Positions 15,306 to 63,395 of a stretch of DNA of 64,000 bases are shown here, one piece after another. The translations under genes and the position numbers were made by a program. The DNA comes from Myxococcota bacterium (GTDB taxonomy: Bacteria > Myxococcota_A > Bradymonadia > UBA7976 > UBA1532), in contig JAYZEG010000011.1 in the NCBI GenBank assembly GCA_036337435.1, positions 32,001 to 96,000 on the forward strand. Direction: 5' to 3'. The notes under the pieces are model-generated. The model had not been told where the DNA came from and did no database searches. It was given only the letters and a program-made list of their open reading frames with translations. Positions within the stretch are counted from its first letter, which is position 1, and every line of letters starts with the position of its first letter.

Positions 15306-15743
15306 CGGTTTATTTGAGTCTGTCTTGAACGCTTGTGGCAGAACGGTACCGTTGCTGAGGTGCTTTGTCATCGGTTCACCGGGCGGGCAGCCTGCCTCAG
15401 GTGCGTCACGTGTCAACGACCCGGGTGACCACACCCCCATTTGAGCCTGTTTCAGCCCGCGTGGGTTGCGTCTGGTCAGCAGGTGAACGCGAGTTTTCCC
15501 TGACCGACAACCATCATCTCATGTCCTTTGGGGCCTTATCTTGAGCCGATGTCGAGATTGGACCTTCAGACGGTTTTTTGATTTTTGATTTGGCGTTTTT
15601 GTCCGATGGGCATTTCGGATATATTGCAATCTGTTTGGGATTAAACTATCGTCCGGTAGTTTTATGCCGTATGGGCGTCGTAGAGACGTTAGGGGACTTG
15701 AACGATGACAAGACCCAAGACCAGTTGACCAGGAGTATGGACC

Positions 15744-34532: not shown

Positions 34533-34762
34533 CAAGTCGCCCCCTCGAATCGCACGTCTGACGGCAGAACATATCAATAGTCGTTACGACTATTTGGCTG
34601 ACCTCCAACGCGCACGTGTAGATCTTGTAGCACGCTGCCATCTTGAAGCCAATTAACAGCCTATGTATCCGGGGGCTAATCGGTAAAAACTACCAAATGG
34701 TAGATTTTGCCGATTAGACTTGTTAGAGTGCCCCGAATCGAATTGGGGGATTAGATTTAAGT

Positions 34763-35548: not shown

Positions 35549-35709
35549 ATATTGGAACCGGCGCATGTCCTCAGTTGGCCACATGAGAGTGGACCCCGAG
35601 TCCCCATATTTGTGACAAAATCGCTTCAAATCATGGCCGATATAAACCTTCTGTCCGGTAGGTTTTTGGCACGTGCCTTGCAAAGATGTTGGCACAGAGG
35701 AGATCGTCC

Positions 35710-39689: not shown

Positions 39690-39926
39690 CTTGGCTCCAG
39701 AGTCCGCTGGGTCGACCTAAGTGCCATGCAATCAATATACCAAATCTACCGAAGGGTTGGAATTGGCGTTGTAGCCCGAGAAAGCCATTGTGACGGACGG
39801 TGTGTTGCAACTCACTGGGGTGTTCCAACCCAACTTCGGTGCCGAGTTGGCCTGTGAGTGGTGTCTTTAGACCGCGGTCCGCCTATCAGTGATATTGGAC
39901 GAAGCGAAATTTCGGCAGGGTATCAT

Positions 39927-44536: not shown

Positions 44537-46036
44537 TTAGCCAAGCCCAGGTAAATTGTCTTGTTGAGGATGCTTGTTGTATTTAGCGAGATACTCTTTG
44601 ACCCGGAGTTTCCTGGCCGTGTTCGCACTGCTCATGAAACGAATTTTGCCGAAGATGGGCCGCTCAGGACCCCACGGTCGGTCAAATCGGCCGAAAGTCC
44701 AACAAATGCCTGACCAGGAATTTGGATTTCGGCCATCTAAGGCGTACCGATTATTCAGTTCGACAATATAGTTAAAGGCGTCTTGTGGACTGGCACTCCA
44801 CTCTATAATTTTTTTGCCCCAGAGCATTCTTAAATAGTTGTGTATATACCCTTCAGAGAGCAACTGGTGCTGCGCTGCATTCCACAGTGGGTCGTGTGTT
44901 GTTCCCTGATCAAATGTGTCAAAATCATAGACGAACTCTCGTTTGTCTGATGCATGCACCGAGAGCGTTTCGATGGCCCATGGGGGTAAGGATTCGTATT
45001 GAAAGTAGTCGGAGGGATGTCTATGGCAGTAGACGTAGCCGAGTTCCCGCCACGTGATGATCTGGTCCAGGTAGCCTTCTACGCCCGGACTCAGGTTCCA
45101 CCAGCCTGCGCGACTCCCTTTATTAACCCCTGAGGCGTCATCGATGGTCCAGTTTTCTCGGGTGAGAAGGTCTCTTACGATCCTGTGACTCGAAATATGC
45201 CCGAAATGCAGACGGGCTGACATGCGACTTGTACCGTTCTTCGATGGATGGTTCCGATCGGTATCGTACTGGTCTGCTCGGTTATCGAGAAAACGGGCCC
45301 AACTGGCCAAAGCGGCAGTTTCCCCACCGGGCTCGTCGACACATCCAATTTTGTATCTTAACCCGCCGGGGATCAGCCCATCGTTGCACGTATCAGTACT
45401 GGACAAGGGTGCGGCTGGCCATTTCGTCTGAATGGGCTCTGGAACAGTTGCCCGTTGTGCAAAGCGACAATTTTGAAGGGGGTCTTCAATTGGAAAATTG
45501 TCTAAGAATTCTCTCATATTTTGCTGTAAAAAACGCCTAAACGAATAAGCCGTTTGGAATGTTCGCGGTGCATAGGCCAGGGGACAGAGCCCATTGCCAT
45601 CGACCAACTCAAAGCGGGCATGCACTTGTGGCGCGCTGGCTTCGACCATTCTGCTCAAAAAGTAACTTGGAAAGTGGTCTGTCACGACGTGGACGGCCCT
45701 TTCCGAGAGAGATGACAAAAGGCCTTTTCCTGCATTTTTCTCGGGCTCGAGATAAGGGTAATAGGTGATATTGGCGGAGCGAAAACGCTCTGCATTGGAC
45801 CGCATCCCGTCGATCATATAGCTGGTGATACGGTCAGATGCCCAGGGATGGTCAAATCGTAGGGCTTCGAAAACCAAAAGGGGTTTGCTGTATTGGCGGC
45901 ACAAATCGAGCGCGTATTGCAGAGCAAAGTTGTCTCGGGTGCGGCGCGCCGTTGTCATCCAATACAGAACATAATCGCGTTCCAGATAAATCGGAGAGTC
46001 GTTGAGGGTTTTCAGTCGCAAAGACGGAATTGACAT
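44537..46036 (-). CDS. phrB: Class II CPD DNA photolyase
   Basis: YVLYWM..A.R..DN.AL; THDPLWNAAQ; GYIHNYLRMLWGKK; LDGRNPN; DRPW.ERPIFGKIRFM. Confidence 0.95.
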   Translation of the reverse strand: MSIPSLRLKTLNDSPIYLERDYVLYWMTTARRTRDNFALQYALDLCRQYSKPLLVFEALRFDHPWASDRITSYMIDGMRSNAERFRSANITYYPYLEPEKNAGKGLLSSLSERAVHVVTDHFPSYFLSRMVEASAPQVHARFELVDGNGLCPLAYAPRTFQTAYSFRRFLQQNMREFLDNFPIEDPLQNCRFAQRATVPEPIQTKWPAAPLSSTDTCNDGLIPGGLRYKIGCVDEPGGETAALASWARFLDNRADQYDTDRNHPSKNGTSRMSARLHFGHISSHRIVRDLLTRENWTIDDASGVNKGSRAGWWNLSPGVEGYLDQIITWRELGYVYCHRHPSDYFQYESLPPWAIETLSVHASDKREFVYDFDTFDQGTTHDPLWNAAQHQLLSEGYIHNYLRMLWGKKIIEWSASPQDAFNYIVELNNRYALDGRNPNSWSGICWTFGRFDRPWGPERPIFGKIRFMSSANTARKLRVKEYLAKYNKHPQQDNLPGLG

Positions 46037-46084: not shown

Positions 46085-47020
46085 TCAGCTCGCGGTGGTT
46101 CTCATGGCCACGACGTCTCTAATGCGATTGGCCATTTCTTCAAGACCCAAGACCTCGCAGCCCGCGATGTCATTTCGCGCATCAGCACCACCAAGCCAAA
46201 TTTGGATTTGGTCCGGTAAGATCGTTCGTAGGCGTCTGACGTAGGCGCGCTGGGTGCCCAACGGCACGTTGACCATCGACAAAGCAAGTGCGAATGGATG
46301 CTGTTTTAAAACGGCTTGGGCTACGATGTCGGCGGGTAACTGAGGCCCCAGGTTGATGACTTCTGCGCCGGCATCCGCCGCCACTCCAGCGGCGATCAAG
46401 AGACCAAGTTCGTGCTGTTCATCGTCAGGCGTTGTGAAGACAACCTTGGGCGCATTTGCGGGCGTCGAAGATGAATCGAATGTCCGCAATAACAGGCTCT
46501 TTAACGCTGCCGAGAGCAGATGTTCGGTCGCCATTGATATCTCGCCCTGCTCCCACAATGTGCCGACGCGTGTGAGCAAGACCCGGCAAAAGTGTGTTCT
46601 GAACGTTGAGGGTCCAAGTAAGCGGTATTGTATGCCCAAGCAGCGCTCAACATTTGTCGCGTCTAATTCCTTAGCATACCCGATCGCCTCCGTCACACTT
46701 CGGGGATCGAGAGTGACGTATTCGCCCTTTCGGGAGCTGCTTGGTCGTTCAACCGCTTTCGTCCGGACCGTCCCAGCGAGCTGTGCCAAAATCGCTTGGT
46801 CAAGCTCAACCAAGTCACTGATACGATGTCCGGCATCGACGGCAGCACCGAGAAGCTGAAACCGCTTTAGATGCGACTCAGTGTATCGCCGTGTGCCTCC
46901 CTCGGATCGAAGGGGCGTCACAACGTTGTACCGTCGCTCCCACGCTCGGATCGTGTGCGCGCTCAAGTTTGCAAGTTGTGCGATCTTACCAATCGAGTAT
47001 GTTTTCTGCTGCTCTGCCAA
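46085..47020 (-). CDS. carH: MerR-family adenosylcobalamin-binding photoreceptor/repressor (CarH/LitR)
   Basis: MerR HTH (YSIGKIA...TIRAWERRY...RSEGGTRRY); W-x9-EH (WEQGEISMATEH); ExHxxG (EQHELG); TTG start. Confidence 0.92.
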   Translation of the reverse strand: MAEQQKTYSIGKIAQLANLSAHTIRAWERRYNVVTPLRSEGGTRRYTESHLKRFQLLGAAVDAGHRISDLVELDQAILAQLAGTVRTKAVERPSSSRKGEYVTLDPRSVTEAIGYAKELDATNVERCLGIQYRLLGPSTFRTHFCRVLLTRVGTLWEQGEISMATEHLLSAALKSLLLRTFDSSSTPANAPKVVFTTPDDEQHELGLLIAAGVAADAGAEVINLGPQLPADIVAQAVLKQHPFALALSMVNVPLGTQRAYVRRLRTILPDQIQIWLGGADARNDIAGCEVLGLEEMANRIRDVVAMRTTAS

Positions 47021-47063: not shown

Positions 47064-47188
47064 ACTTTAGACAGAATGGAATAAGTCTATACAAAAATAT
47101 CGACAAAAGAATTTTTTGTATAGATTTAATGTTGACATGTCTAAGTTTGAACGGTAAAACCTAGACATGGTTAGCGTTTGTCTAAATA
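47064..47188. promoter_or_regulatory. Putative CarH operator field and sigma70 promoter of the ECF sigma gene
   Basis: Eight TnnACA half-sites on both strands; perfect 12-bp inverted repeat TCTATACAAAAA (47086-97) / TTTTTGTATAGA (47113-24); TTGACA(47132)-17-TAAAAC. Confidence 0.72.
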
Positions 47189-47326: not shown

Positions 47327-47917
47327 ATGGGACGTCAAGCAAAGCCAGTCGTTGACACAAGCATCGTCGAAGCCGCTCAAGCGGGTGACTCGCGAGCTCT
47401 CGAGAAGTTGATCGGAGCGCACTATCCGGCGATGTGTCGCCTCGCTCTCCGCTATACCAACGACCCAGACCTGGCCAAAGATGCAGTGCAAGACGCGTGC
47501 ATTCAGGTCATGCGGTATTTCCCGCAGCTGCGCGATACAAGCAGCTTCAAGTCTTGGATGAGCCGTATCGTCATTAACTGCGTCCGATTACACCAGCGTC
47601 GGAATAAGAGATTTGTCGCGTTTGGCGATGGTATTGAGCGGACCCAAGAAGTTTGCCAGCAACAACCCGACGAAGTGGTGATGACCCGTGAAGAACTCGT
47701 CATTGTAGACGATTTTCTAAAGAGTGCCCAAAATGACGAACGGGCCATCTTTCTACAGCTTTACGTTGGCGGTGATGCGGTCGCGACTGTAAGCGAAAAA
47801 ACGGGCATCTCCGTCGCAGCACTGAAGACGCGCGTTCATCGAGCTCGGCGTCGACTTAAAAAATATATGCACACCAAGCATGACACGGATCTTGGCTTTG
47901 GCCAAATGGGTCTCTAA
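47327..47917 (+). CDS. ECF RNA polymerase sigma factor (LitS-like context)
   Basis: GD.RAL..L; AKDAVQDA; SFKSWMSRIVIN; G.S.AALKTRVHRARRRL. Confidence 0.92.
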   Translation: MGRQAKPVVDTSIVEAAQAGDSRALEKLIGAHYPAMCRLALRYTNDPDLAKDAVQDACIQVMRYFPQLRDTSSFKSWMSRIVINCVRLHQRRNKRFVAFGDGIERTQEVCQQQPDEVVMTREELVIVDDFLKSAQNDERAIFLQLYVGGDAVATVSEKTGISVAALKTRVHRARRRLKKYMHTKHDTDLGFGQMGL

Positions 47918-47997: not shown

Positions 47998-48969
47998 ATG
48001 GCATATTCGACTCAATCGAGCCCGGATTACGATAAACCACTACTCGGAATCAGCCGTTGTCTCCTCGGAGACACTGTCCGCTTTGATGGCGGGCACAAAC
48101 GGTCTCGCTACGCCGAGCAAACCCTCAGCCAGTATTTTCGATGGTACCCAGTCTGTCCCGAGGTTGAGTCTGGCATGTCTTCGCCCCGGCCCTCCATTAG
48201 GCAGGTTCGCGATGGAGGCGAGCTTCGTGTCGTGAGCGCGACGGGGGTGGATGTAACAGACGCGCTCAGGAAAGCGTCCGACAGGCGATTAGAGCAGATG
48301 CGTACAAAGCCGCTGCGCGGCTTTATCGTTGTGAATGATTCGCCGTCGTGCGGCCTGGAGCGCGTTCGAGTGTACGAGGGTTCTCATCCCGTTCGCACCG
48401 GGGTTGGAGTGTTTACAGCAGCACTCAGGAATGCGTATCCCAATATGCCAGTCGAAGAAAGCGGTCGTCTCAACGATGCACGCCTCAGAGAGAACTTCAT
48501 CCTGCGGGTCTATACATACCACCGGTTCAAAGAAATGGTCGACGATGGTCCATCGGTTTCCGATTTAATGCGATTTCACGCAGAGCACAAATACCTGTTG
48601 CTGGCCCACAATCCGTCGATGGCACGTCATCTCGGCGGACTGGTCGCGCAATGTTGCCGAGCAAACCTGGCGGCGGTACTGGCCGAATACGAGTCGGGTA
48701 TGATGGATTCGCTGGCCAAACCTGCGAAAGTAGGAGGTCATGTCGACGCCCTTCAGCACATCGTTGGTTTCATATCCGACCAGTTCACTCCAGAGACAAG
48801 CCAGCACATGCAGGAAACCATCGCGGCCTACGGTTCTGGTGAAATACCGCTGATTACACCGATTACGTTAATCAATCACTATCTTGCGGTTGCCGGTACC
48901 GATTGGGTCCGGCGGCAGTGGTACCTCAAACCGTACCCAGCCGCGTTATCATTGCGAAGTCGGATCTGA
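47998..48969 (+). CDS. DUF523(TudS)-DUF1722 fusion (YbgA / RudS-like 4-thiouridine desulfidase)
   Basis: GISRCLLG..VRFDGGHK, VCPEVE, SPSCG, EESGRL.D..LRENF, FH..HKYLLLAH, YL.PYP. Confidence 0.92.
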   Translation: MAYSTQSSPDYDKPLLGISRCLLGDTVRFDGGHKRSRYAEQTLSQYFRWYPVCPEVESGMSSPRPSIRQVRDGGELRVVSATGVDVTDALRKASDRRLEQMRTKPLRGFIVVNDSPSCGLERVRVYEGSHPVRTGVGVFTAALRNAYPNMPVEESGRLNDARLRENFILRVYTYHRFKEMVDDGPSVSDLMRFHAEHKYLLLAHNPSMARHLGGLVAQCCRANLAAVLAEYESGMMDSLAKPAKVGGHVDALQHIVGFISDQFTPETSQHMQETIAAYGSGEIPLITPITLINHYLAVAGTDWVRRQWYLKPYPAALSLRSRI

Positions 48970-50194: not shown

Positions 50195-50486
50195 CCTCCA
50201 TGGGGGTCACTTCTTGTAGGTAAAGAGAGAAACCCAGTATCTCCCACTGGATGGCAATATTCTTACGATCGGTAGATTTGTCAAGCTGTAAACAGAGGTT
50301 TTCTATTTTGAAGGGGATTGCCCGCTGGAGTCTCCGATTGGGTTTTCCGCTTGCTTACGTTCAGTCATGGGTGTCGCATGAGCGATAATGGACATGTAAA
50401 GACCCTGCTACGGGAGTCTGGCTGCTCAAAAGCATATGATCATGGCAGAGGGTGCTGGGACACTTGTCATTAGAAATGGTCCGCCC

Positions 50487-54120: not shown

Positions 54121-55419
54121 TTAACTTAAGTCCAAGGTTCTTGTTGCACCACTTTGCTCATGACCCAGCGCTCGCGCAGTGTTTTCGAGCCGATTTTGTC
54201 CTTGGCTGCGCAGCGGCATAACCAGTCCTGCTAAGAAAGCTGGGACATGCTGCAAAGGGAGTTTCCAGACTGCGCGTTTACCCATATTGGCTTCGAGAAA
54301 ATGAGTGAGCAGTCCCGGGCTACGTGATAACCCGCGGATCGCCAACCGTCTTAGGAGGGGCACTCTCGCCAACACGAGTGCCAGCTTGACCATGCGTACA
54401 CTTTTCCAGTAAATCCGAAAAATGCGCCGGCCAAGACCGCTTAGGTCATCCGCACCTAATCGATTGGTTCGCACCAATATTGGGAGCTCATGTGCTACAA
54501 CCTCTGCCTGCTGTAATGCCACGGAAAGGCCCTCTCCCGTGATGCCGTCCACGTAGCCCAGGGCATCACCCAACAGAATAGTTCGATCTTGGGTTGCAAC
54601 CTTTGCTTGGACTGCCAGTGGGCCCGTTGCTTGTTGATTAGATACGGTCTTACATCCGCTCACTCGTCTTTCTAGTTGGGGAAAGTTCTTTAACAGAACG
54701 GACATCAGATTTCGTCCAGCTCGGGCCGGTTTAAAACGTGATTTATCCCAAAGAAATGCGACTTCGACACGACTTTCAGACGAGGGTGTAACGTAAGCTT
54801 CTATTCCATTTGACCAATACACTTCGACGTGATTTGTCCACGGAGTAACCTGAAAGTGTTGGCGCGCGCCCCAACGCTTGTCCCTCACCGCTGGAGAACC
54901 GTCGAGTTTCAATAGTTTCCTGACTTTCGAATTTCGGCCGTCTGCACCGATCACGACAGCGGCTTTCATTCCGAACTGGCCGTCGATACCGCGAAGTTTT
55001 ATATCAACATGGGATTCGAATGATTCGATAGCCAGAAGCTGAGTCGACTCCATCAGGGTTACGTAAGGGCTGTCTTGGGCCGCCTTGTAAAGTGCATCGC
55101 TCAGTCCTGTTCTACGAATGCCATAACCAACCCCGCTGTCGAAGTTTGCTTGCGCGATCGCACCTTGGTCACAAATCCAGCGTATGCCATAAAATGCCCG
55201 GAGTGAATCATGATCGATCTGTTCGAAGATCCCCATTCGGTCTAGCGTTTCGACGCCACAAGGCATCAGGCCTTCGCCACAAACTTTATCGATTGGCCAT
55301 TGCTTCTTGTCGACAACCGTTACGAACAGCCGCCTTTTCGCGAGGGCTATCGCACAGGCGAGCCCGGCAGGACCGCCTCCGACGATGACAACATCCACTT
55401 TTCGTTGGGTAAGACTCAT
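54121..55419 (-). CDS. FAD-dependent monooxygenase (FtpE/SrsC-like)
   Basis: VGGGPAG, DKVCGEGLMP, IGADG, LGDA.GYVD.ITGEG. Confidence 0.88.
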   Translation of the reverse strand: MSLTQRKVDVVIVGGGPAGLACAIALAKRRLFVTVVDKKQWPIDKVCGEGLMPCGVETLDRMGIFEQIDHDSLRAFYGIRWICDQGAIAQANFDSGVGYGIRRTGLSDALYKAAQDSPYVTLMESTQLLAIESFESHVDIKLRGIDGQFGMKAAVVIGADGRNSKVRKLLKLDGSPAVRDKRWGARQHFQVTPWTNHVEVYWSNGIEAYVTPSSESRVEVAFLWDKSRFKPARAGRNLMSVLLKNFPQLERRVSGCKTVSNQQATGPLAVQAKVATQDRTILLGDALGYVDGITGEGLSVALQQAEVVAHELPILVRTNRLGADDLSGLGRRIFRIYWKSVRMVKLALVLARVPLLRRLAIRGLSRSPGLLTHFLEANMGKRAVWKLPLQHVPAFLAGLVMPLRSQGQNRLENTARALGHEQSGATRTLDLS

Positions 55420-55423
55420 GGAA

Positions 55424-57187
55424 TCACCGCGTTCGCTCGACAAGCCTGATGTGGCTTGCTCGATGTCGAATGTGTTGAACCAAACCACTGCCCATCTCTT
55501 TGAGGATGAGCCCACGGGTTACTTTTTTTCCAGCACTTAAGGTGCCGTTAAGCCAGCAACTTCGCGCTTCGCTGCGCCTAATTTTACCCGATGAGGTTCG
55601 TGGTAATGTGCCGGGGTCAAGTAATTCGAATTCGGATACGGACAGACCCACGCCGGCCTGAACCGCTGCAATGGCTTCATTGACCACGGCGTCTGCATCC
55701 ACATGCTCTCGCCCTTTTTCGGCCAGCAGAATCAATCGCTCACTACCGGCCTGCTCGTCATGAACTCCAAAAGCAGCGACACAACCAGGTCGAATTCCAT
55801 CAAGACCATCCAGGGATTGTTCGACGAGTGCGGGGTCATGATTTCGACCGTTTATGATGACGATGTCCTTTTCGCGACCGCACAGATACAGCTCGCCATT
55901 CAGAATGAAGCCTGTGTCTCCCGTATCGAGCCAGCCATCCTCGTCCAACGTCTCAGCGGTCGCATCCGGTCGGTTGAGGTAGCATTGCATGACGCCCGGA
56001 CTCTTCACGTGGACACGTCCGACTCGTGCGTCCGAGAGTTTGGCTCCGTCGCCGTTGCGAACTTCGATAGAGCAGCCGGCGAGTGGTTTACCGAGGGATG
56101 GAATTTGGCGACCGTCCGCCGTGATTTCCGCGATCCCTGATTGTTCCAACCGGTCTGCATCGAAATGGGTCCATTGTGGCTTCTGGTTGGGTTCTGAAAA
56201 GGTGACGGCCAGCGTCGCTTCCGCAAGGCCATAAACGGGCGTGATTGCGGTCGAGTCGAAGCCGACAGCCGAGAATCGACTTGAAAACTCCTCCAGGGTT
56301 CGCGGATGAACTGGCTCTGCTCCACACAGCGCCACTTTCCAGTTCGCTAGATCGAGGCCATCCAAATCGCAATCACGGGTCTTGTTCGCTGTGAGTCCGA
56401 AAGCAAAATTGGGAGCCACCGATATTGTCGCCTGGCTTTCAGACAGAGCTTGGAGCCAACGAACCGGTTTGGTCACAAACCGTTCTGGACCGAGCAGGGT
56501 CAGTGGCGATGAACTCACAACGGCCGAAATCATACAGCCAACGAGCCCCATGTCATGATAGAGCGGCAACCAACTGACACCGCTCCGTTCATCAGCGGCA
56601 ACCGGTAGGGCGTCTAAAATGGCGCGCGCGTTGTACAGGATGTTTTCATGGCTGAGAGCCACCGGTTTCGGATCACCGGTGCTGCCGGAGCTGAACTGGA
56701 TGGCTGCAATATCTGCGGCGGGTGCAGTCGGCGTGTATCCAACATGGCCATTTTTCTGCAGCTGCGCCACAGTGTGACAGCCGAGTTTTGGATCCGCCAT
56801 TCGCACAGGGGTCCCCAAAAGGGGCATCAACCGCTTATCGGTCAAAACGGCAGCGCACTCTACTGAAACCAGCATCTTTGCCGTGCGAATCTTCCACTCT
56901 TCGACTTTACCCAGTCGCGCTGGTGGATAGAGCGCCGTCGGCACCCCACCGGCAATGCAAACGCCGAAGAACGCTGCATAGAATTCTGGACCGGTGCCGA
57001 GAACAATGGCCACGGTGTCTTTAGGCTTTAGACCGCGATGGACCAAACTGTCTGCAACGGCGCGTGCGCTTTGCATTAAAATTTCGTAGCGATAAAACTG
57101 TGACCGGCCCGGATCAGACCAAAAGGTTACGCCGCTGACCCCCAGACTGGCTCGCTCTAAAGCTTGAATCAGCGTGTCAGCTTGCAT
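55424..57187 (-). CDS. Fatty acyl-AMP ligase (FtpD-like)
   Basis: QFSSGSTGDPK, SWLPLYHDMGL, PVYGLAEATL, WLDTGD, GR.KD, LPRTSSGK. Confidence 0.93.
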   Translation of the reverse strand: MQADTLIQALERASLGVSGVTFWSDPGRSQFYRYEILMQSARAVADSLVHRGLKPKDTVAIVLGTGPEFYAAFFGVCIAGGVPTALYPPARLGKVEEWKIRTAKMLVSVECAAVLTDKRLMPLLGTPVRMADPKLGCHTVAQLQKNGHVGYTPTAPAADIAAIQFSSGSTGDPKPVALSHENILYNARAILDALPVAADERSGVSWLPLYHDMGLVGCMISAVVSSSPLTLLGPERFVTKPVRWLQALSESQATISVAPNFAFGLTANKTRDCDLDGLDLANWKVALCGAEPVHPRTLEEFSSRFSAVGFDSTAITPVYGLAEATLAVTFSEPNQKPQWTHFDADRLEQSGIAEITADGRQIPSLGKPLAGCSIEVRNGDGAKLSDARVGRVHVKSPGVMQCYLNRPDATAETLDEDGWLDTGDTGFILNGELYLCGREKDIVIINGRNHDPALVEQSLDGLDGIRPGCVAAFGVHDEQAGSERLILLAEKGREHVDADAVVNEAIAAVQAGVGLSVSEFELLDPGTLPRTSSGKIRRSEARSCWLNGTLSAGKKVTRGLILKEMGSGLVQHIRHRASHIRLVERTR

Positions 57188-57440
57188 CTCGCATCTCCGA
57201 CTGTCGGTATAAAATAAGGCGCGCGATATCGTCGACAGTTTCGGGTGGATTATCTGCATCTTCACCCAGATACATTTCGAATTCGTTCTCTAATTCGAGG
57301 GCCAAACTCAGGAGACCGACACTATCCAATCCGAGATCAGCTTGTAGCCTCGCCTTTGGTCCCACCAAGCTTCGCTCCACCCCGCAGTGTTCTTCGAGTA
57401 TGTTTTTGATAACCATCAGGCAATCGGCATAGGTACTCAT
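57177..57440 (-). CDS. Acyl carrier protein (FtpC-like)
   Basis: DLGLDSV phosphopantetheine site; acidic; 87 aa; overlaps both neighbours. Confidence 0.92.
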   Translation of the reverse strand: MSTYADCLMVIKNILEEHCGVERSLVGPKARLQADLGLDSVGLLSLALELENEFEMYLGEDADNPPETVDDIARLILYRQSEMRDAS

Positions 57441-58015
57441 GACGTCCGTCCAATCGGTAAAAAGCGATTTTTATTTTCAAACGTTGCCTCATAATTATTA
57501 AGTCGGCTGAGTTCTCTCTCTTCCGTTCGGATGCGCACCAGTAGCAACCATGCGTTTGCGATGCTGAAAACAGCGGCCGTAATCCAGCCATTGAAAATAA
57601 GTGGAAGAGCCGCGATCTCGAGTACAACCCCTAAATAATTGGGGTGTCGGATGAATCGGAAGATGCCCTCGTTAACGACTCGAGCGTGAGGCAACACAAT
57701 GATCCGTGTGGTCCATCGAGGGCCTAGCGTTTTAATGGCGATCAGCCGCAGCGCTTGACCCGCAATGAGCAAAGCGAGTCCCGTGACAACGAGAAAGACC
57801 GGTGGGGTTTGATTTCGCCATAGTGCTTCACCAACGCAGGCGAAAAGCCAAATGGTATGAAGGCTTGCCATCACAGGGTAGTGTCCTGACCCGACCTCGA
57901 TTGCACCTTGTTCCAAAAGGCGCTTCGTATTGTGTTTTGACAAGCGCAGTTCAAGTAACCGCTGGACCGAAACGACCAGGACGAGTCCGATGTATAGTGT
58001 CGTGCTTGCAATCAT
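57437..58015 (-). CDS. Isoprenylcysteine carboxyl methyltransferase family protein (FtpB/SrsB/BpsB-like)
   Basis: QRLLEL..S..N, HY..M...H, LG.RWTTRI, RHPNY, RI..EE. Confidence 0.92.
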   Translation of the reverse strand: MIASTTLYIGLVLVVSVQRLLELRLSKHNTKRLLEQGAIEVGSGHYPVMASLHTIWLFACVGEALWRNQTPPVFLVVTGLALLIAGQALRLIAIKTLGPRWTTRIIVLPHARVVNEGIFRFIRHPNYLGVVLEIAALPLIFNGWITAAVFSIANAWLLLVRIRTEERELSRLNNYEATFENKNRFLPIGRTS

Positions 58016-59079
58016 CAGTGCACCGTTTCTAACAAATTAAGCTCTGCGCAAAAGGCCGGGCCCATCGCAGCCATCATGCCAACCGAGCCGGCCGGCGGTA
58101 GATTCTTCATGCGTTCTCTAAGTACGAATAAAACTGAGGACGAACTCATATTCCCGTACCGAGCCAAACTGTCCCAAGACAGCGCCAGCGCATCTTCATC
58201 CAGACCTAACGCAGTCTCCATCGCCTTCATCACTTTGGGGCCGCCTGGGTGGGCTACGAGGAAATCGGGTCTCGCTTGCTCTAGGCCGGAATCGGCCATC
58301 AGTGCCTCCACCTCGGATGGGAGTTCTTCCGCGACGATCTTGGGTACGTCGGGTGACAGGACGACTTTGAACCCGCTGTCAACAACGTCCCAGCCCATCA
58401 CCCGTTCAGTGTCCTGAAAGAACGCTGACCTTGGGTTAGACCATCTGAGCGGTGCTGTTGCAGCCAGTGGGTGTTCATCTCCAACCATCAAGACAGCCGC
58501 ACAGCCGTCACCAAACAGACCAGAGGCAACAATGTTGGCCACTGACAAATCCTGTTTCTGGAGTGTGAGCGAACACAGTTCCACGGAGACCAGCAACGCC
58601 GCTTGATCTGGATGCCCGTCCAGATAGTCACCGACGCGATTAATACCTGCGACACCGGCTAGACACCCTAAACCGAACAAGGGCATCCGCCGCGTGTCAC
58701 GCCGGAACGGGAGTTGATTCATGAGACGCGCATCTAAGCTGGGTACGGCGAGCCCCGTGACGGTGGTACTGACGATCGCGTCAATGTCACTTGCATCTAG
58801 GGCCGCTGCGTCAAGCACTTTAGCGACCGCTTCTGTTGCCATCGGAACGGCGGCTTTGACCCACGCGGTATTGAACGATCCAAAGCCGGATAGCTCCTGG
58901 TATGCTTCCAGGGGGATTGCCAAATGTCGGCCTCCGACGAGCACATTACGTTGGAAGTCAATGATGCGCTGCGGATTAAAATACCGTTCCCGCCAGTCCG
59001 CCATCAAAGCGTCTGTGAGTTGATCCTGATCATAATAGTGCGGTGCAAGGCTGCACTCGACGCTGTGTATGTACGGCAT
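58015..59079 (-). CDS. Type III polyketide synthase (FtpA/SrsA-like)
   Basis: Catalytic triad GLGCLAG, AHPGG, YGNMSS; VELCSL, LFGDG, MGP. Confidence 0.96.
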   Translation of the reverse strand: MPYIHSVECSLAPHYYDQDQLTDALMADWRERYFNPQRIIDFQRNVLVGGRHLAIPLEAYQELSGFGSFNTAWVKAAVPMATEAVAKVLDAAALDASDIDAIVSTTVTGLAVPSLDARLMNQLPFRRDTRRMPLFGLGCLAGVAGINRVGDYLDGHPDQAALLVSVELCSLTLQKQDLSVANIVASGLFGDGCAAVLMVGDEHPLAATAPLRWSNPRSAFFQDTERVMGWDVVDSGFKVVLSPDVPKIVAEELPSEVEALMADSGLEQARPDFLVAHPGGPKVMKAMETALGLDEDALALSWDSLARYGNMSSSSVLFVLRERMKNLPPAGSVGMMAAMGPAFCAELNLLETVH

Positions 59080-59162
59080 GGTCAGGATCTCCCCTCTTCA
59101 GTGGCAAAACCGAGAACGATGAAGCCGGACTGACCCCTGCTCCGAACCGATTTTCCGCATAT

Positions 59163-59229
59163 AATCTACCGTCCGGAAGATTAATTGTCAACATTTTGTC
59201 TAGGTTTAATGGATAAATCTATGCAAAAA
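59163..59229 (-). promoter_or_regulatory. sigma70 promoter of the PKS operon overlapped by CarH-type 11-bp direct repeats
   Basis: Minus strand TTGACA(59191-86)-17-TAGATT(59168-63); tandem AACCTAGACAA and AATGTTGACAA. Confidence 0.75.
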
Positions 59230-59316
59230 CCTGTTCGAAAAATTATTTAAGTTAGTTAACGCCGTGCCGTCCAACCCGACATCGGTTGGCAGGACGCATG
59301 CTCAAGTCATCGTATC

Positions 59317-60057
59317 TCAGCAACCGCCTTCGGTATTCAGCCTGAAAATTTTGGTTGCTATTCCTTGATACATGACAGAACTAAATGGTTGCTGCCCAAA
59401 TGTAAAACCGCCTTTCCATCCCACGGGACCAATTCCGGTTTTTCGTTCAATTTTTGCCCCATCTTTTCTGAGCCATGATTCTAACTCGTTGGGTTTAATA
59501 AACTTTTTCCAGTCATGGGTGCCTTTAGGAACCACCCCAATTAAATTTTCAGCAAGTGTAATCATGACAACTTTCGCTAAGAAAGTTCGGTTTATGCAGC
59601 TGAAGAAGAGCCGTCCGCCTGGTTTCAAAACGCGGAGTATTTCTGTCAGTACAACCCGTGGATCGTCGACATGGACGAGGACGTCTGTGCAGATGACCAG
59701 GTCGAACACCTCATCTCCGAAGGGGAGTTTTTCCGCTGCCCCAACTCGGTAGTCGACATGCAAACCATCCTGTTCAGCTTTGTTACGCGCTGCCTGAATG
59801 GCACCAGCTGCTGAATCGATACCGGTCACGTGGGCACCGGCCTTGGCGACCAGCGTGCTTAAAAAACCTCCGCCACAGCCGACATCCAATAGGTGCATGC
59901 CGAACGGGTCGACGAAACGCGACAGGTAGGCCATGCGAGGATGAGCCAGACGGCGTAAAGGGTCGAGTAGAGTGGCCTCTTCATCCCACCATGGATCCAC
60001 TTGATCGTAGATCGTGAGGTCATTTCGAATCACTTTTGGTTGGCGTATCATAGACAT
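59317..60057 (-). CDS. UbiG-like SAM-dependent O-methyltransferase
   Basis: NDL.IYD...WW, LDVGCGGG, GTHDWKKFIKP; start trimmed from the 409-aa ORF. Confidence 0.88.
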   Translation of the reverse strand: MSMIRQPKVIRNDLTIYDQVDPWWDEEATLLDPLRRLAHPRMAYLSRFVDPFGMHLLDVGCGGGFLSTLVAKAGAHVTGIDSAAGAIQAARNKAEQDGLHVDYRVGAAEKLPFGDEVFDLVICTDVLVHVDDPRVVLTEILRVLKPGGRLFFSCINRTFLAKVVMITLAENLIGVVPKGTHDWKKFIKPNELESWLRKDGAKIERKTGIGPVGWKGGFTFGQQPFSSVMYQGIATKIFRLNTEGGC

Positions 60058-60080
60058 CCGGTCGTGATAGAAAGTCGTGG

Positions 60081-60518
60081 TTAGTGAGTCGCGCGTCGGG
60101 CTAGGCTGGGTGCCCACAACCGCTCTGAGGTTTGTGCGGCAAGCCAGTTGCCCGTCGGTATAAAAGCGGCAAAGAATAATGTCATCGCGAGGGAGAAGTT
60201 TCGCTCTCCCAACAGCGTGTCGATGATGTTGCCCTGAAATGCAATCGATGTCTCGAAAGCGTATCCACAGATTTCCAGAAGGCCAAGTACCAGAAGTCCC
60301 CACAAATACTGGTCGAATGCGGGTTTCGTACGGCACACGATCGATGCAGGAATGAGGTAGAGACCGTAACACGTCAGAACCTGCCACCAGTTGGCAAACA
60401 TGGCTATTTCCGCGTATTGGCCAATGGCGTTCATTGTAAAGCCCAGGGGTATATAAACCACAACATAAGCCAGCAATAGTCGCTTGGGTACGTCTAGTCG
60501 GTCGATCACATTGCGCAT
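60081..60518 (-). CDS. Small integral membrane protein (about 4 TM)
   Basis: Hydrophobic segments; co-oriented and 23 nt upstream of the ubiG-like gene. Confidence 0.75.
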   Translation of the reverse strand: MRNVIDRLDVPKRLLLAYVVVYIPLGFTMNAIGQYAEIAMFANWWQVLTCYGLYLIPASIVCRTKPAFDQYLWGLLVLGLLEICGYAFETSIAFQGNIIDTLLGERNFSLAMTLFFAAFIPTGNWLAAQTSERLWAPSLARRATH

Positions 60519-60560
60519 GGGTCGCTCCACGAATCCGAAAGGACACACATTATACACATA

Positions 60561-60604
60561 AATCTACCAATTGGAAGGTTTTTGTTTACATTTTTGTCCA
60601 GATT
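60561..60604 (-). promoter_or_regulatory. Promoter/operator resembling the PKS promoter
   Basis: Minus strand AATCTGGACAA-A-AATGTAAACAA...CTTCC...GGTAGATT. Confidence 0.65.
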
Positions 60605-61249
60605 TCTTCATCAGTGAGTATTCGCCAACTGCGATCCAGGCAGTCAGAGGTCCGTTTGTGGTGGTCATCTTTGGGGTCTTGTTTGCCAACAAACAGTCAT
60701 ATCAGCGACGCGCTCGATTAAAGCCTACTGAAATTTAACACGGCCACGTAGTGACGTTTCGAAGACTGAAAGCGAAAAGACCCTCTCCAGGTCACTGGGC
60801 GGTGAATGAAAACCGTGCCAGCGTTCGTCGCTCTAGCTGAATCGCACAGCAGTCCGAACGAGTCGATGCACACTGGGGCCGCTCTTCGCAACCGTCCCAT
60901 TCGCACACCAGAACGATCGCAGCAGGCATAAACGCTGCGTGACGGCCCGCTGAGACGCTGTCGGTTTGCCCACACTCCATCGGGAACCTAAAGGCACTTC
61001 CCATCAGCAGATCCAATCATCGTTATCCGCCAGGTCTCAATCCAGGACGACATACAGTCTGTCTTCGATCTGTTACAGTTTCGATGTAGACCGAGATGGA
61101 GGGTCAGTTCAGTCGAACGATCCGCGGTGGCCCAGACGCATTCTGCAACAGAATGTCTGGTAACCTTGGCGCATTGGACCGCATCTGCACAGTGGACCAG
61201 CCGTAATGTATATATCCGGCGTGTTATTTTTGTCAGGACCAGCGTGCTT

Positions 61250-62143: not shown

Positions 62144-62631
62144 CGATTGAGCCCAATGGAAACGAATATATCCTTCATCAGGAACAGTTCATCGCCCAAC
62201 CGCTGAGCGAGGTGTGGGCCTTTTTTTCGAACGCAGAAAACTTAGAACGTCTGACACCCGATTTCCTCAACTTCAAAATATTGACACCGACCCCAATCGA
62301 CATGTTCGAGGGCACTTTGATCGATTACCGCATTCGGCTTTTCGGTGTCCCCATGAATTGGCGTACCGAGATCATACATCTCGAACCTGAGGTGCGCTTC
62401 GTAGACCAGCAACTCAAGGGACCCTACGCAAAGTGGTACCATGAGCATCGATTTGAGGAGGTTGACGGTGGTACGCTGATGACCGACCGGGTCGAATATC
62501 GAGTTCCTTTTTCAGCCCTAGGACATCTGGCTCATTCGGTGATGGTAAAGCGCACTTTGCAGCGTATCTTTCAATATCGATATGACGCCGTGAGTGAGGT
62601 CTTCGGCGAGCCGTCCGAGCAAGCTGCCTAG
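62140..62631 (+). CDS. SRPBCC (START-like) family protein
   Basis: VWAFF...NL..LTP, FVD.Q..GPY..W.HEH.F, IF.YR; GTGA overlap (alternative ATG at 62113). Confidence 0.9.
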   Translation: MTIEPNGNEYILHQEQFIAQPLSEVWAFFSNAENLERLTPDFLNFKILTPTPIDMFEGTLIDYRIRLFGVPMNWRTEIIHLEPEVRFVDQQLKGPYAKWYHEHRFEEVDGGTLMTDRVEYRVPFSALGHLAHSVMVKRTLQRIFQYRYDAVSEVFGEPSEQAA

Positions 62632-63395
62632 GGGTCGGGGTGCATGATCAACTCGAGTCGCCGCAAGCACTCAAAACTCCATTGAGCGACCGTTTGGAAA
62701 TCACGCACTGTCGGAGACTCTGCATTCACGTCCAGCTTGCCTAACCACGCTTCATCAACAGCAATGGGCTCACCGAAAAGGACTCGCACCTGTTGACCAC
62801 GCTTGGGCACTGTGGTGCCGATGGGCAACAGTTCGTGCATACCATAATGGTAGAATGGAGCCAGCATAGGTTTTGCGTCGAGGATCAATTGGCCAATGCC
62901 CAATTTGAACGGTGTTTTCATCCTCGCATGTTCGTCTCGAGTTCGCCCACCTTCTGGAAAAATATGAACCCAATCTCCCAATTTCAGTCTCTCGGATAAA
63001 AAGGTTAAACCGGGCTGGTCGAGCCCTGCACCCCTGACGATGGGTACGCACTTTCCTGCAGCCGAGATGAAGCCCTTCAATGCGCTTCCGTAAAAGTTCT
63101 TATGGTCTGCTCCGATCCACCGGACATCCGAGAATTTCACTCGGCCCAAGTTAGAGACCAGTAGGGGATCATCAAAGAGAGAAACGTGATTACTAAACGA
63201 TAAGATGCCACGCTTTGTTGTTTGAAACGCGGAGTCCCAATTTTGCCGCTCAATAAACTCAAGATGATTTAATTTGGTCATCACAAATCGTGAATAGCCG
63301 ACGACAGCAGCACATAGAATTTTTTGATACGGGCGCGCTTTAGGATTCCAATGACGTAATTCAAAGTCCAAATCCAATGCATCTTTATCTGACAA
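62628..63395 (-). CDS. Tafazzin-like lysophospholipid acyltransferase/transacylase
   Basis: [10 protein letters not shown] (HxxxxD), [39 protein letters not shown]. Confidence 0.88.
   Translation of the reverse strand: [255 protein letters not shown]

Follow-up and report, generated by a model that had tools for sequence, protein, structure and literature searches.

The promoter of a five-gene type III polyketide synthase (PKS) cluster is probably a direct target of a CarH-type light repressor, which would act through conserved half-sites beside the −35 hexamer. Light likely switches on the cluster, probably together with a second regulator, for which a 22 bp palindrome over the spacer and −10 hexamer is the predicted site. 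The existence of a direct CarH operator was proposed in the preliminary description of this DNA and is supported by the rank of the promoter with an independently trained matrix, by its conservation, and by the single intact CarH in both genomes concerned, although the anatomy proposed there stands only in part.

The window, i.e. the whole 64,000 nt stretch analyzed, is part of contig C11 of the source genome G000 (4.38 Mb assembly, 87% complete). We compared it with the genus genomes G001, G002 (81% complete), and G003 within a set of 41 genomes, and with the metagenome contigs L064 and L068. Our own ORF calls gave 3274 genes and 1717 intergenic regions in G000. RNA runs containing parts of the window are seawater metatranscriptomes, and the host is an uncultured marine bacterium; three of the runs gave only short low-depth contigs over parts of the window, in which a start site was not found. 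The 44–63 kb island contains genes for a photolyase, the CarH-type repressor, an ECF sigma factor, a TudS-DUF1722 protein, a TIGR01777 oxidoreductase, an SRPBCC protein, and the PKS cluster (Table 1). Pairwise conserved blocks did not reveal an ECF-sigma promoter motif common to the island genes. An acyltransferase gene at 62628-63395 is convergent with the TIGR01777-SRPBCC pair, and this adjacency is retained in G001 and L064.

Table 1. Genes and predicted sites, given as window positions unless a contig is named
Feature	Position	Strand	Basis or remark
Photolyase (class II-like), downstream of carH	44537..46036	-	TIGR00591, 325 bits, below cut-off
CarH/LitR class I repressor, MerR HTH and B12-binding domains	46085..47020	-	profile match
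Inverted operator 1, TCGACA-N11-TGTATA, directly upstream of sigma-gene −35	47096..47126	.	predicted
ECF sigma-gene promoter, TTGACA-17-TAAAAC	47132..47160	+	predicted
Inverted operator 2, TAGACA-N11-TGTCTA, over −10 and predicted start of sigma promoter	47158..47188	.	predicted
ECF sigma factor, LitS-like position, divergent from carH	47327..47917	+	Pfam/NCBIfam profile matches
TudS-DUF1722 fusion, RudS-type tRNA 4-thiouridine desulfidase	47998..48969	+	PF04463 and PF08349; excerpts of PMC11417400
FAD-dependent monooxygenase	54121..55515	-	PF01494
Fatty acyl-AMP ligase	55424..57187	-	NF006624, 453 bits, below cut-off 600; PF00501
Acyl carrier protein	57177..57440	-	NCBIfam acyl carrier models, below cut-off
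ICMT-family methyltransferase	57437..58015	-	PF04140
Type III PKS, Pks11/SrsA/FtpA-like, first cluster gene	58015..59079	-	Pfam Chal_sti_synt
22 bp palindrome TAATCTACCG-TC-CGGAAGATTA, over spacer and −10 (TAGATT, 59163-59168, minus)	59162..59183	.	one mismatch
AATGTTGACAA, −35 TTGACA (59186-59191) doubling as in-phase repeat or pseudo-repeat	59185..59195	-	
CarH-type half-site AAACCTAGACAA, directly upstream of PKS −35	59196..59207	-	predicted; 12/12 identical in L064
Second CarH-type half-site AAATCTATGCAA, back-to-back with the first, 17 nt between hexamers	59215..59226	+	predicted
Second promoter module (half-site, half-site, palindrome) before orf60557-ubiG pair	60560..60605	-	layout retained in L064 and L068
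Further palindrome copy	15643-15662		intergenic
Further palindrome copy	34686-34707		intergenic
Further palindrome copy	35644-35665		intergenic
Further palindrome copy	39743-39762		intergenic
Further palindrome copy	50259-50278		intergenic
Further palindrome copy	60560-60581		intergenic
RPGRP-arm TetR family member (L352)	G000:C81:7040-7624		
RPGRP-arm TetR family member (L351)	G001:C53		
RPGRP-arm TetR family members (L350, L355)	G003:C426 and C307		

The window CarH, a protein of 311 residues with a MerR HTH (PF13411), carries RAWERRY at residue 25 as its RxWERRY recognition helix, the Wx9EH motif (WEQGEISMATEH), and a match to the full-length D/ExHx2G/Px41SxT/Vx22-27GG B12 motif; these three elements are the criteria for calling CarH in excerpts of PMC9304148. 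Its score with the NCBIfam CarH equivalog was 92.7 bits against a cut-off of 400. The Arg-Asp dimer pair is absent, as EQHELG and GPQLP align with ERHEIG and GPDTP of the Thermus protein, leaving Gln at both positions, and the residue after Trp is Glu, not His (WE versus WH). The dimer salt bridge and the His after Trp, to which these divergent positions correspond, are common but not universal in CarH. The protein is the sole CarH match in the G000 assembly, and G002 likewise has one. In a tree of 43 proteins, it groups with four other genus members in a clade distinct from that of most other family members and from a third, PKS-adjacent clade (G003 and L068). A PduO-type adenosyltransferase was not found in the assemblies of G000 or G002 (87% and 81% complete) and is present in G001 and G003. 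Other MerR-type arrangements were also seen: tandem paralogues of which only one has B12 motifs, in a Spirochaetales MAG and a deltaproteobacterial MAG (L148/L149); a motif-less MerR type beside a rudS-like gene, with tandem half-sites upstream (G003:C555, L056); and a MerR protein of 170 residues that carries CxxC-x9-CxxC at its C terminus and is encoded immediately before a gene that by eye is cysteine-desulfurase-like (iscS-like; L224:1240-1752, G000:C48).

The PKS contains the GLGC, AHPGG, and GNMSS motifs, and its best PDB match is Pks11 (E 2.5e-87). The ICMT-family methyltransferase at 57437..58015 is SrsB-like. The true start of the FAD monooxygenase probably lies ~30 codons inside the annotated frame. 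The set of type III PKS, methyltransferase, oxygenase, acyl carrier protein, and fatty acyl-AMP ligase known from the ftp/srs clusters is complete here. Gene content and comparison with the srs, ftp, and pks10 systems predict that the cluster makes methylated alkylresorcinols or alkylquinones. Clusters of the ftp/srs/pks10 type form alkylresorcinols first and then alkylquinones, with participation of the fatty acyl-AMP ligase (excerpts of PMC10896814 and PMC5916927). In Myxococcota, few biosynthetic clusters are as conserved as those for alkylpyrones and alkylquinones, which PMC12766979 describes as the sole conserved class without a characterized ecological role. We hypothesize that the product is photoprotective.

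The preliminary description had based its proposal on exact words shared by the PKS promoter and the carH-sigma intergenic region. These words are located as claimed: AAACCTAGACA occurs at 47157-67 (+) and 59197-207 (−), AATGTTGACA at 47128-37 (+) and 59186-95 (−), 59208-29 aligns with 47075-97 with two mismatches and one gap, and the two 11-mers at 59196-206 and 59185-95 adjoin directly. A rarer word, AAATCTAT[AG]CAAAAA, was overlooked; its two copies in the genome lie one each in the carH and PKS regions. Word sharing as such is nevertheless too common to prove a CarH operator. There are four copies of AAACCTAGACA and eight of AATGTTGACA in G000; an 11-mer or longer is common to the carH region and 47 of the 1716 other intergenic regions, and two blocks of at least 10 are common to it and 20 of them. 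When the motif was compared with an AT-matched intergenic background, a check that had been suggested with the claim, the exact words proved weak (6 of 72 AT- and length-matched regions share at least an 11-mer with the carH region and 4 share two blocks of at least 10). The 11 bp phase is not enriched, as the genome holds 8 strict nAnnTnnACAn pairs at 11 bp versus 5–11 at the other spacings of 8–15, and genome-wide counts of hexamer pairs by spacing and orientation were flat. The significance of the PKS-carH likeness derives from the independent matrix and from cross-species conservation, not from exact words.

The half-site matrix was built from 10 half-sites taken solely from the carH promoters of G001 and G003, and each region was scored by its best half-site pair within 35 bp. 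Among the 1717 intergenic regions of G000, the carH region ranked first and the PKS region second. The PKS region remained second after TTGACA and the palindrome were masked, whereas 12 column-shuffled matrices placed it 42nd to 1193rd. The best-scoring pair is 59196-207 with the oppositely oriented 59215-26, not the tandem pair of the preliminary description. AAACCTAGACAA is tied for the top single site of the genome with this matrix, which was trained on other species.

As the G002 PKS gene sits at a contig start, the sister-species promoter was read from L064, whose PKS is 93% identical. AAACCTAGACAAAA is identical at 14/14 positions in L064 between diverged flanks (4/24 and 6/29 identical), and 64/174 fourfold-degenerate PKS sites are identical in this one pairwise comparison. 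The counterpart of AAATCTATGCAA is 9/12 identical at unchanged spacing, a turnover to another near-consensus half-site, and the matrix score of the L064 promoter is 26.3 versus 24.3 in G000. CarH of Thermus and Bacillus binds tandem 11 bp direct repeats with a consensus of about nAnnTnnACAn that overlap the −35. The overlap is found here, with TTGACA (59186-59191) inside the second 11-mer. The second "direct repeat" is mostly the −35 itself: its L064 counterpart, AAACTTGACTA, is 8/11 identical and has lost ACA, retaining only TTGAC. The "degenerate third repeat" is the left arm of the separate palindrome, probably the site of another regulator. Two perfect repeats are present in G000 and one plus a pseudo-repeat in L064, with the palindrome arm as the next 11-mer, and the conserved partner of AAACCTAGACA is the oppositely oriented half-site 17 nt upstream. 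Three or four repeats are used by Thermus and Bacillus CarH, whereas in Sorangium and Haliangium binding also occurs at operators that have only one or two perfect repeats. Since such short operators are bound in other myxobacteria and the G003 locus beside the rudS-like gene carries tandem half-sites (score 21.7), the tandem model stays viable at the PKS promoter.

It is unlikely, though the best surviving of the alternatives, that AAACCTAGACA is kept as the site of a different AT-loving regulator or as ordinary −35-flanking promoter architecture, its likeness to the carH region being incidental. AA[ACT][CT]TA[GT]ACA is ~8-fold enriched in intergenic DNA genome-wide, with 19 intergenic copies, and strong single copies stand before housekeeping genes; half-sites of equal strength occur singly upstream of the unrelated GAPDH, mraZ, and multihaem cytochrome genes. 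TnnACA is also −35-like, and the palindrome is present in 3 of the 10 best matrix regions. The 12-mer pattern occurred 15, 8, 9, and 5 times in the four genus genomes versus 4, 2, 10, and 4 times for the reversed control, a clear enrichment only in G000 and G001. Against this explanation, the carH promoter holds a cluster of eight half-sites and the PKS promoter a strong pair, while copies elsewhere are mostly single. Moreover, TAGACA does not serve as a sigma-70 −35, as it lacks a −10-like hexamer 16–18 nt on and only the TTGACA promoter was found. This TTGACA-17-TAGATT promoter, noted earlier, is the sole sigma-70-type match in 58900-60800, which alone is not significant given a mean of 1.6 in shuffled sequences. 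Finally, CarH and PKS are linked independently in G003 and L068.

In those two lineages, an intact-motif CarH paralogue (G003, L049:2699-3562; L068:1886-2773) is encoded directly upstream of the orthologous PKS gene and after ubiG, a gene order that is an independent CarH-PKS link. The paralogue belongs to the separate clade and is 27% identical to the window CarH. The ubiG-PKS gap of G000 and L064 is only ~240–250 bp and holds no such paralogue. The PKS promoters of G003 and L068, both with the paralogue beside the PKS, scored poorly with the half-site matrix (9.7 and 9.2), and a comparable operator was not found at three other close PKS loci or nine class-level PKS homologues. Among 80 metagenome PKS loci searched for this adjacency in distant taxa, only L068, which is of the same group, had CarH beside the PKS, and two Bdellovibrionota loci near carH had only weak PKS-like matches. 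Phytoene synthase was not found in the incomplete assemblies of G000, G002, or G003; CarH and phytoene synthase matches share a contig, ~3 kb apart or less, in several other genera of the family. G001 has a retinal-type cluster of crtE-crtB-desaturase and beta-carotene dioxygenase (blh) genes (L272, G001:C42:3932-9815), and a strong CarH half-site was not found outside the reading frames of this crt cluster. The carotenoid genes of the genus seem to be uncoupled from CarH.

The carH-sigma region differs in geometry from the PKS promoter. A pair equivalent to inverted operator 1 is found in G002, G001, and G003 C133, and inverted operator 2 is the sole genome-wide match to the refined inverted pattern. 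In the sigma-gene promoter, TTGACA is invariant and the spacing retained in four of four aligned homologues. All five carH promoters of the clade carry face-to-face TnnACA-N11-TGTnnA (N12 once), and one of the five has a direct 11 bp pair; the PKS promoter lacks the face-to-face N11 layout. At 76 more distant CarH loci, direct 11 bp pairs were found at 20 (1.6 in shuffles) and the N11 face-to-face pair at one, in a distant set that includes many related Pedobacter genomes and has usable upstream DNA at 101 of 102 loci. We regard the inverted layout as a variant of a known one, because an inverted site with a 12 bp spacer is known for class II LitR of Pseudomonas (excerpts of PMC9758184).

Still less probable is an indirect light control, exerted only via the CarH-repressed ECF sigma factor or by read-through from orf60557-ubiG, with the words at 59 kb not a functional switch. 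The divergent litR-litS pair of Streptomyces acts through its sigma factor (excerpts of PMC11519972), the upstream orf60557-ubiG operon runs in the same direction as the PKS gene and has its own half-site pair, and one RNA-library contig, which may be DNA, covers 58940-59251 and extends past the predicted start. However, the PKS gene is preceded by a conserved sigma-70-type promoter of its own, next to which the half-sites are tightly conserved, and a conserved hairpin lies between ubiG and this promoter. The hairpin, CCAACC-N7-GGTTGG at 59271-59289 just after ubiG, is covered by a 19 bp stretch identical in L064 amid diverged DNA and may act as a terminator or a processing site. A perfect TATAAT on the plus strand (59160-59165) overlaps the palindrome edge, lacks an evident −35, and is absent from L064.

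The palindrome, also overlooked in the preliminary description, is 21/22 identical in L064 and recognizable at the PKS promoters of G003 and L068, where it is kept more widely than the CarH-type half-sites. Exact matches to its degenerate pattern number 15 across the four genus genomes, and the 37 others have none. When two mismatches were allowed, 29, 18, and 22 sites were found in G001, G002, and G003 versus 2, 7, and 8 for the reversed control. A matrix trained solely on sites of G001 and G003 gave 28 sites in G000 above score 14, of which 24 are intergenic and the PKS site is the best. At a low threshold, the shuffled-matrix control was not discriminating (23 palindrome sites versus 6–46); with a larger independent training set, 17 sites versus 0–5 scored above 18. 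Many genes beside the sites encode predicted lipoproteins, hydrolases, and lipid enzymes, and the six further copies in the window mostly precede predicted lipoprotein genes. A −35-like hexamer abuts the palindrome at 0–4 nt in 16 placements among 68 sites, which fits a repressor site. An extra half-site 13–15 nt upstream accompanies only 4 of the 68 palindromes, including two in this island, and so does not belong to the regular palindrome module. The palindrome may define a previously unnoticed regulon of ~20–30 promoters per genome in this uncultured marine genus.

A candidate for the palindrome binder comes from a TetR family that is enriched in the genus and marked by an N-terminal RPGRP arm and an invariant RKASLYHHF helix; in the source genome it is the protein at G000:C81:7040-7624. 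It stays only a candidate, because the site precedes both G003 paralogues (scores 19.9 and 15.6) but neither of the orthologues in G000 and G001. No member of the family was found in G002, and an unrelated TetR gene of G003 is also preceded by a palindrome site. Upstream of the seven TetR genes of G000, the best score was 8.5 and none was convincing, and the two other MerR proteins had no listed palindrome site at their genes. Among the papers listed in a search for the palindrome arms together with TetR, none was evidently relevant as judged from titles and the beginnings of abstracts. A gene with a TMEM189/CarF-family lipid desaturase domain (L339:1723-2466, G003:C515) has a palindrome just upstream. 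We rejected the palindrome as a LexA box, since the lexA upstream regions of four genomes (L292-L295) by eye show two conserved GTTCAG-containing boxes per promoter instead; these are probably the LexA sites of the genus and resemble the Myxococcus LexA box. Paired −10 boxes are an unlikely identity as well, given GGAAG on both arms at several exact sites.

That CarH alone reads both half-sites and palindrome, as a global regulator of 20–30 promoters, is the least probable explanation: both motifs begin AAWCTW and have AAA[TC]CT[AT] outer arms in common, the inverted operator exceeds the palindrome by one helical turn (33 versus 22 bp), the palindrome and the window CarH clade are both confined to the genus among the 41 genomes, and the motifs co-occur in 3 of the top 10 regions (p ~1e-4), but the palindrome lacks ACA, the defining triplet of CarH, is found in none of the four carH promoters scored (scores ≤3.8), mostly neighbors lipoprotein, hydrolase, and lipid-enzyme genes, not light-response genes, and co-occurs with the half-sites partly due to the −35 boxes abutting it (16 placements at 0–4 nt among 68 sites).

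By analogy with established CarH biology, AdoCbl-bound oligomers would sit on the DNA in the dark, covering the −35 until light sets them free. Under direct repression of the PKS promoter by CarH, the AdoCbl-bound repressor would in the dark occupy the two TnnACA half-sites beside the PKS −35, where two or three flexible DNA-binding domains of the oligomer would contact half-sites about two helical turns apart (59215-26, 59196-207, and perhaps the −35 repeat) and block RNA polymerase. Photolysis of AdoCbl would release CarH and derepress the alkylresorcinol/alkylquinone cluster. Through the inverted sites at 47096-47188, CarH would also repress its own carH-photolyase operon and the divergent ECF sigma-rudS operon. 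Full PKS expression would additionally need the release of the palindrome-binding repressor from the −10. A joint reading, which we offer tentatively, is that the CarH of this genus was rewired from carotenoids to polyketide-derived alkylquinone lipids as a light-induced membrane protectant. The link would have arisen twice, in one lineage by a dedicated paralogue beside the PKS gene and in the other by new half-sites read in trans by a different CarH clade. The promoter would then be a gate with two inputs, the second of them from an undescribed TetR-type lipid regulon found across the genus.

The CarH light switch itself is well known. The window CarH has the MerR HTH, RxWERRY, Wx9EH, and B12 motifs in common with CarH/class I LitR of Thermus thermophilus (PDB 5C8D/5C8E/5C8F, 3WHP), Bacillus megaterium, and Myxococcales, and TnnACA half-sites overlapping or flanking a TTGACA −35 are a further likeness (excerpts of PMC9304148). 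Unlike in class I systems, the predicted target is a type III PKS cluster instead of crt genes, only two tandem repeats are present at the PKS promoter, and the half-sites of the carH promoter are inverted. Class II LitR of Pseudomonas (PplR1, PmlR2) uses face-to-face T(G/A)TACA-N12-TGTA(C/T)A with two sites per promoter, as in the window carH region, and regulates non-carotenoid targets that include photolyase, RudS, and a lipid-modifying enzyme (excerpts of PMC9758184 and PMC11417400). However, class II LitR has no Rossmann B12 domain and depends on a LOV protein, whereas the window CarH has the full B12 motif; the spacer is mostly 11 here versus 12 in Pseudomonas, and the PKS pair is back-to-back. 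As in litR-litS of Streptomyces, the repressor gene is divergent from an ECF sigma gene with both promoters under one operator region (excerpts of PMC11519972), but crt genes as sigma targets were not found here.

The ftp cluster of Myxococcus xanthus, srsABC of Streptomyces griseus, and the pks10 operon of Mycobacterium smegmatis likewise combine a type III PKS with a methyltransferase and an oxygenase; in contrast to the window cluster, light or CarH control of them was not found in the literature searched. Among the papers listed in searches of the openly searchable literature, none gave an example of a type III polyketide or alkylresorcinol under natural CarH or LitR control, and in the available text of the one paper joining CarH/LitR and type III PKS terms, RppA is an engineered reporter. 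If the CarH operator is true, the outputs of CarH extend beyond carotenoids to a natural polyketide pathway, and a CarH with the B12 motif can use inverted half-sites like the B12-independent class II LitR. A light-repressor operator on an alkylquinone-type cluster would also give these lipids a testable role, membrane photoprotection.
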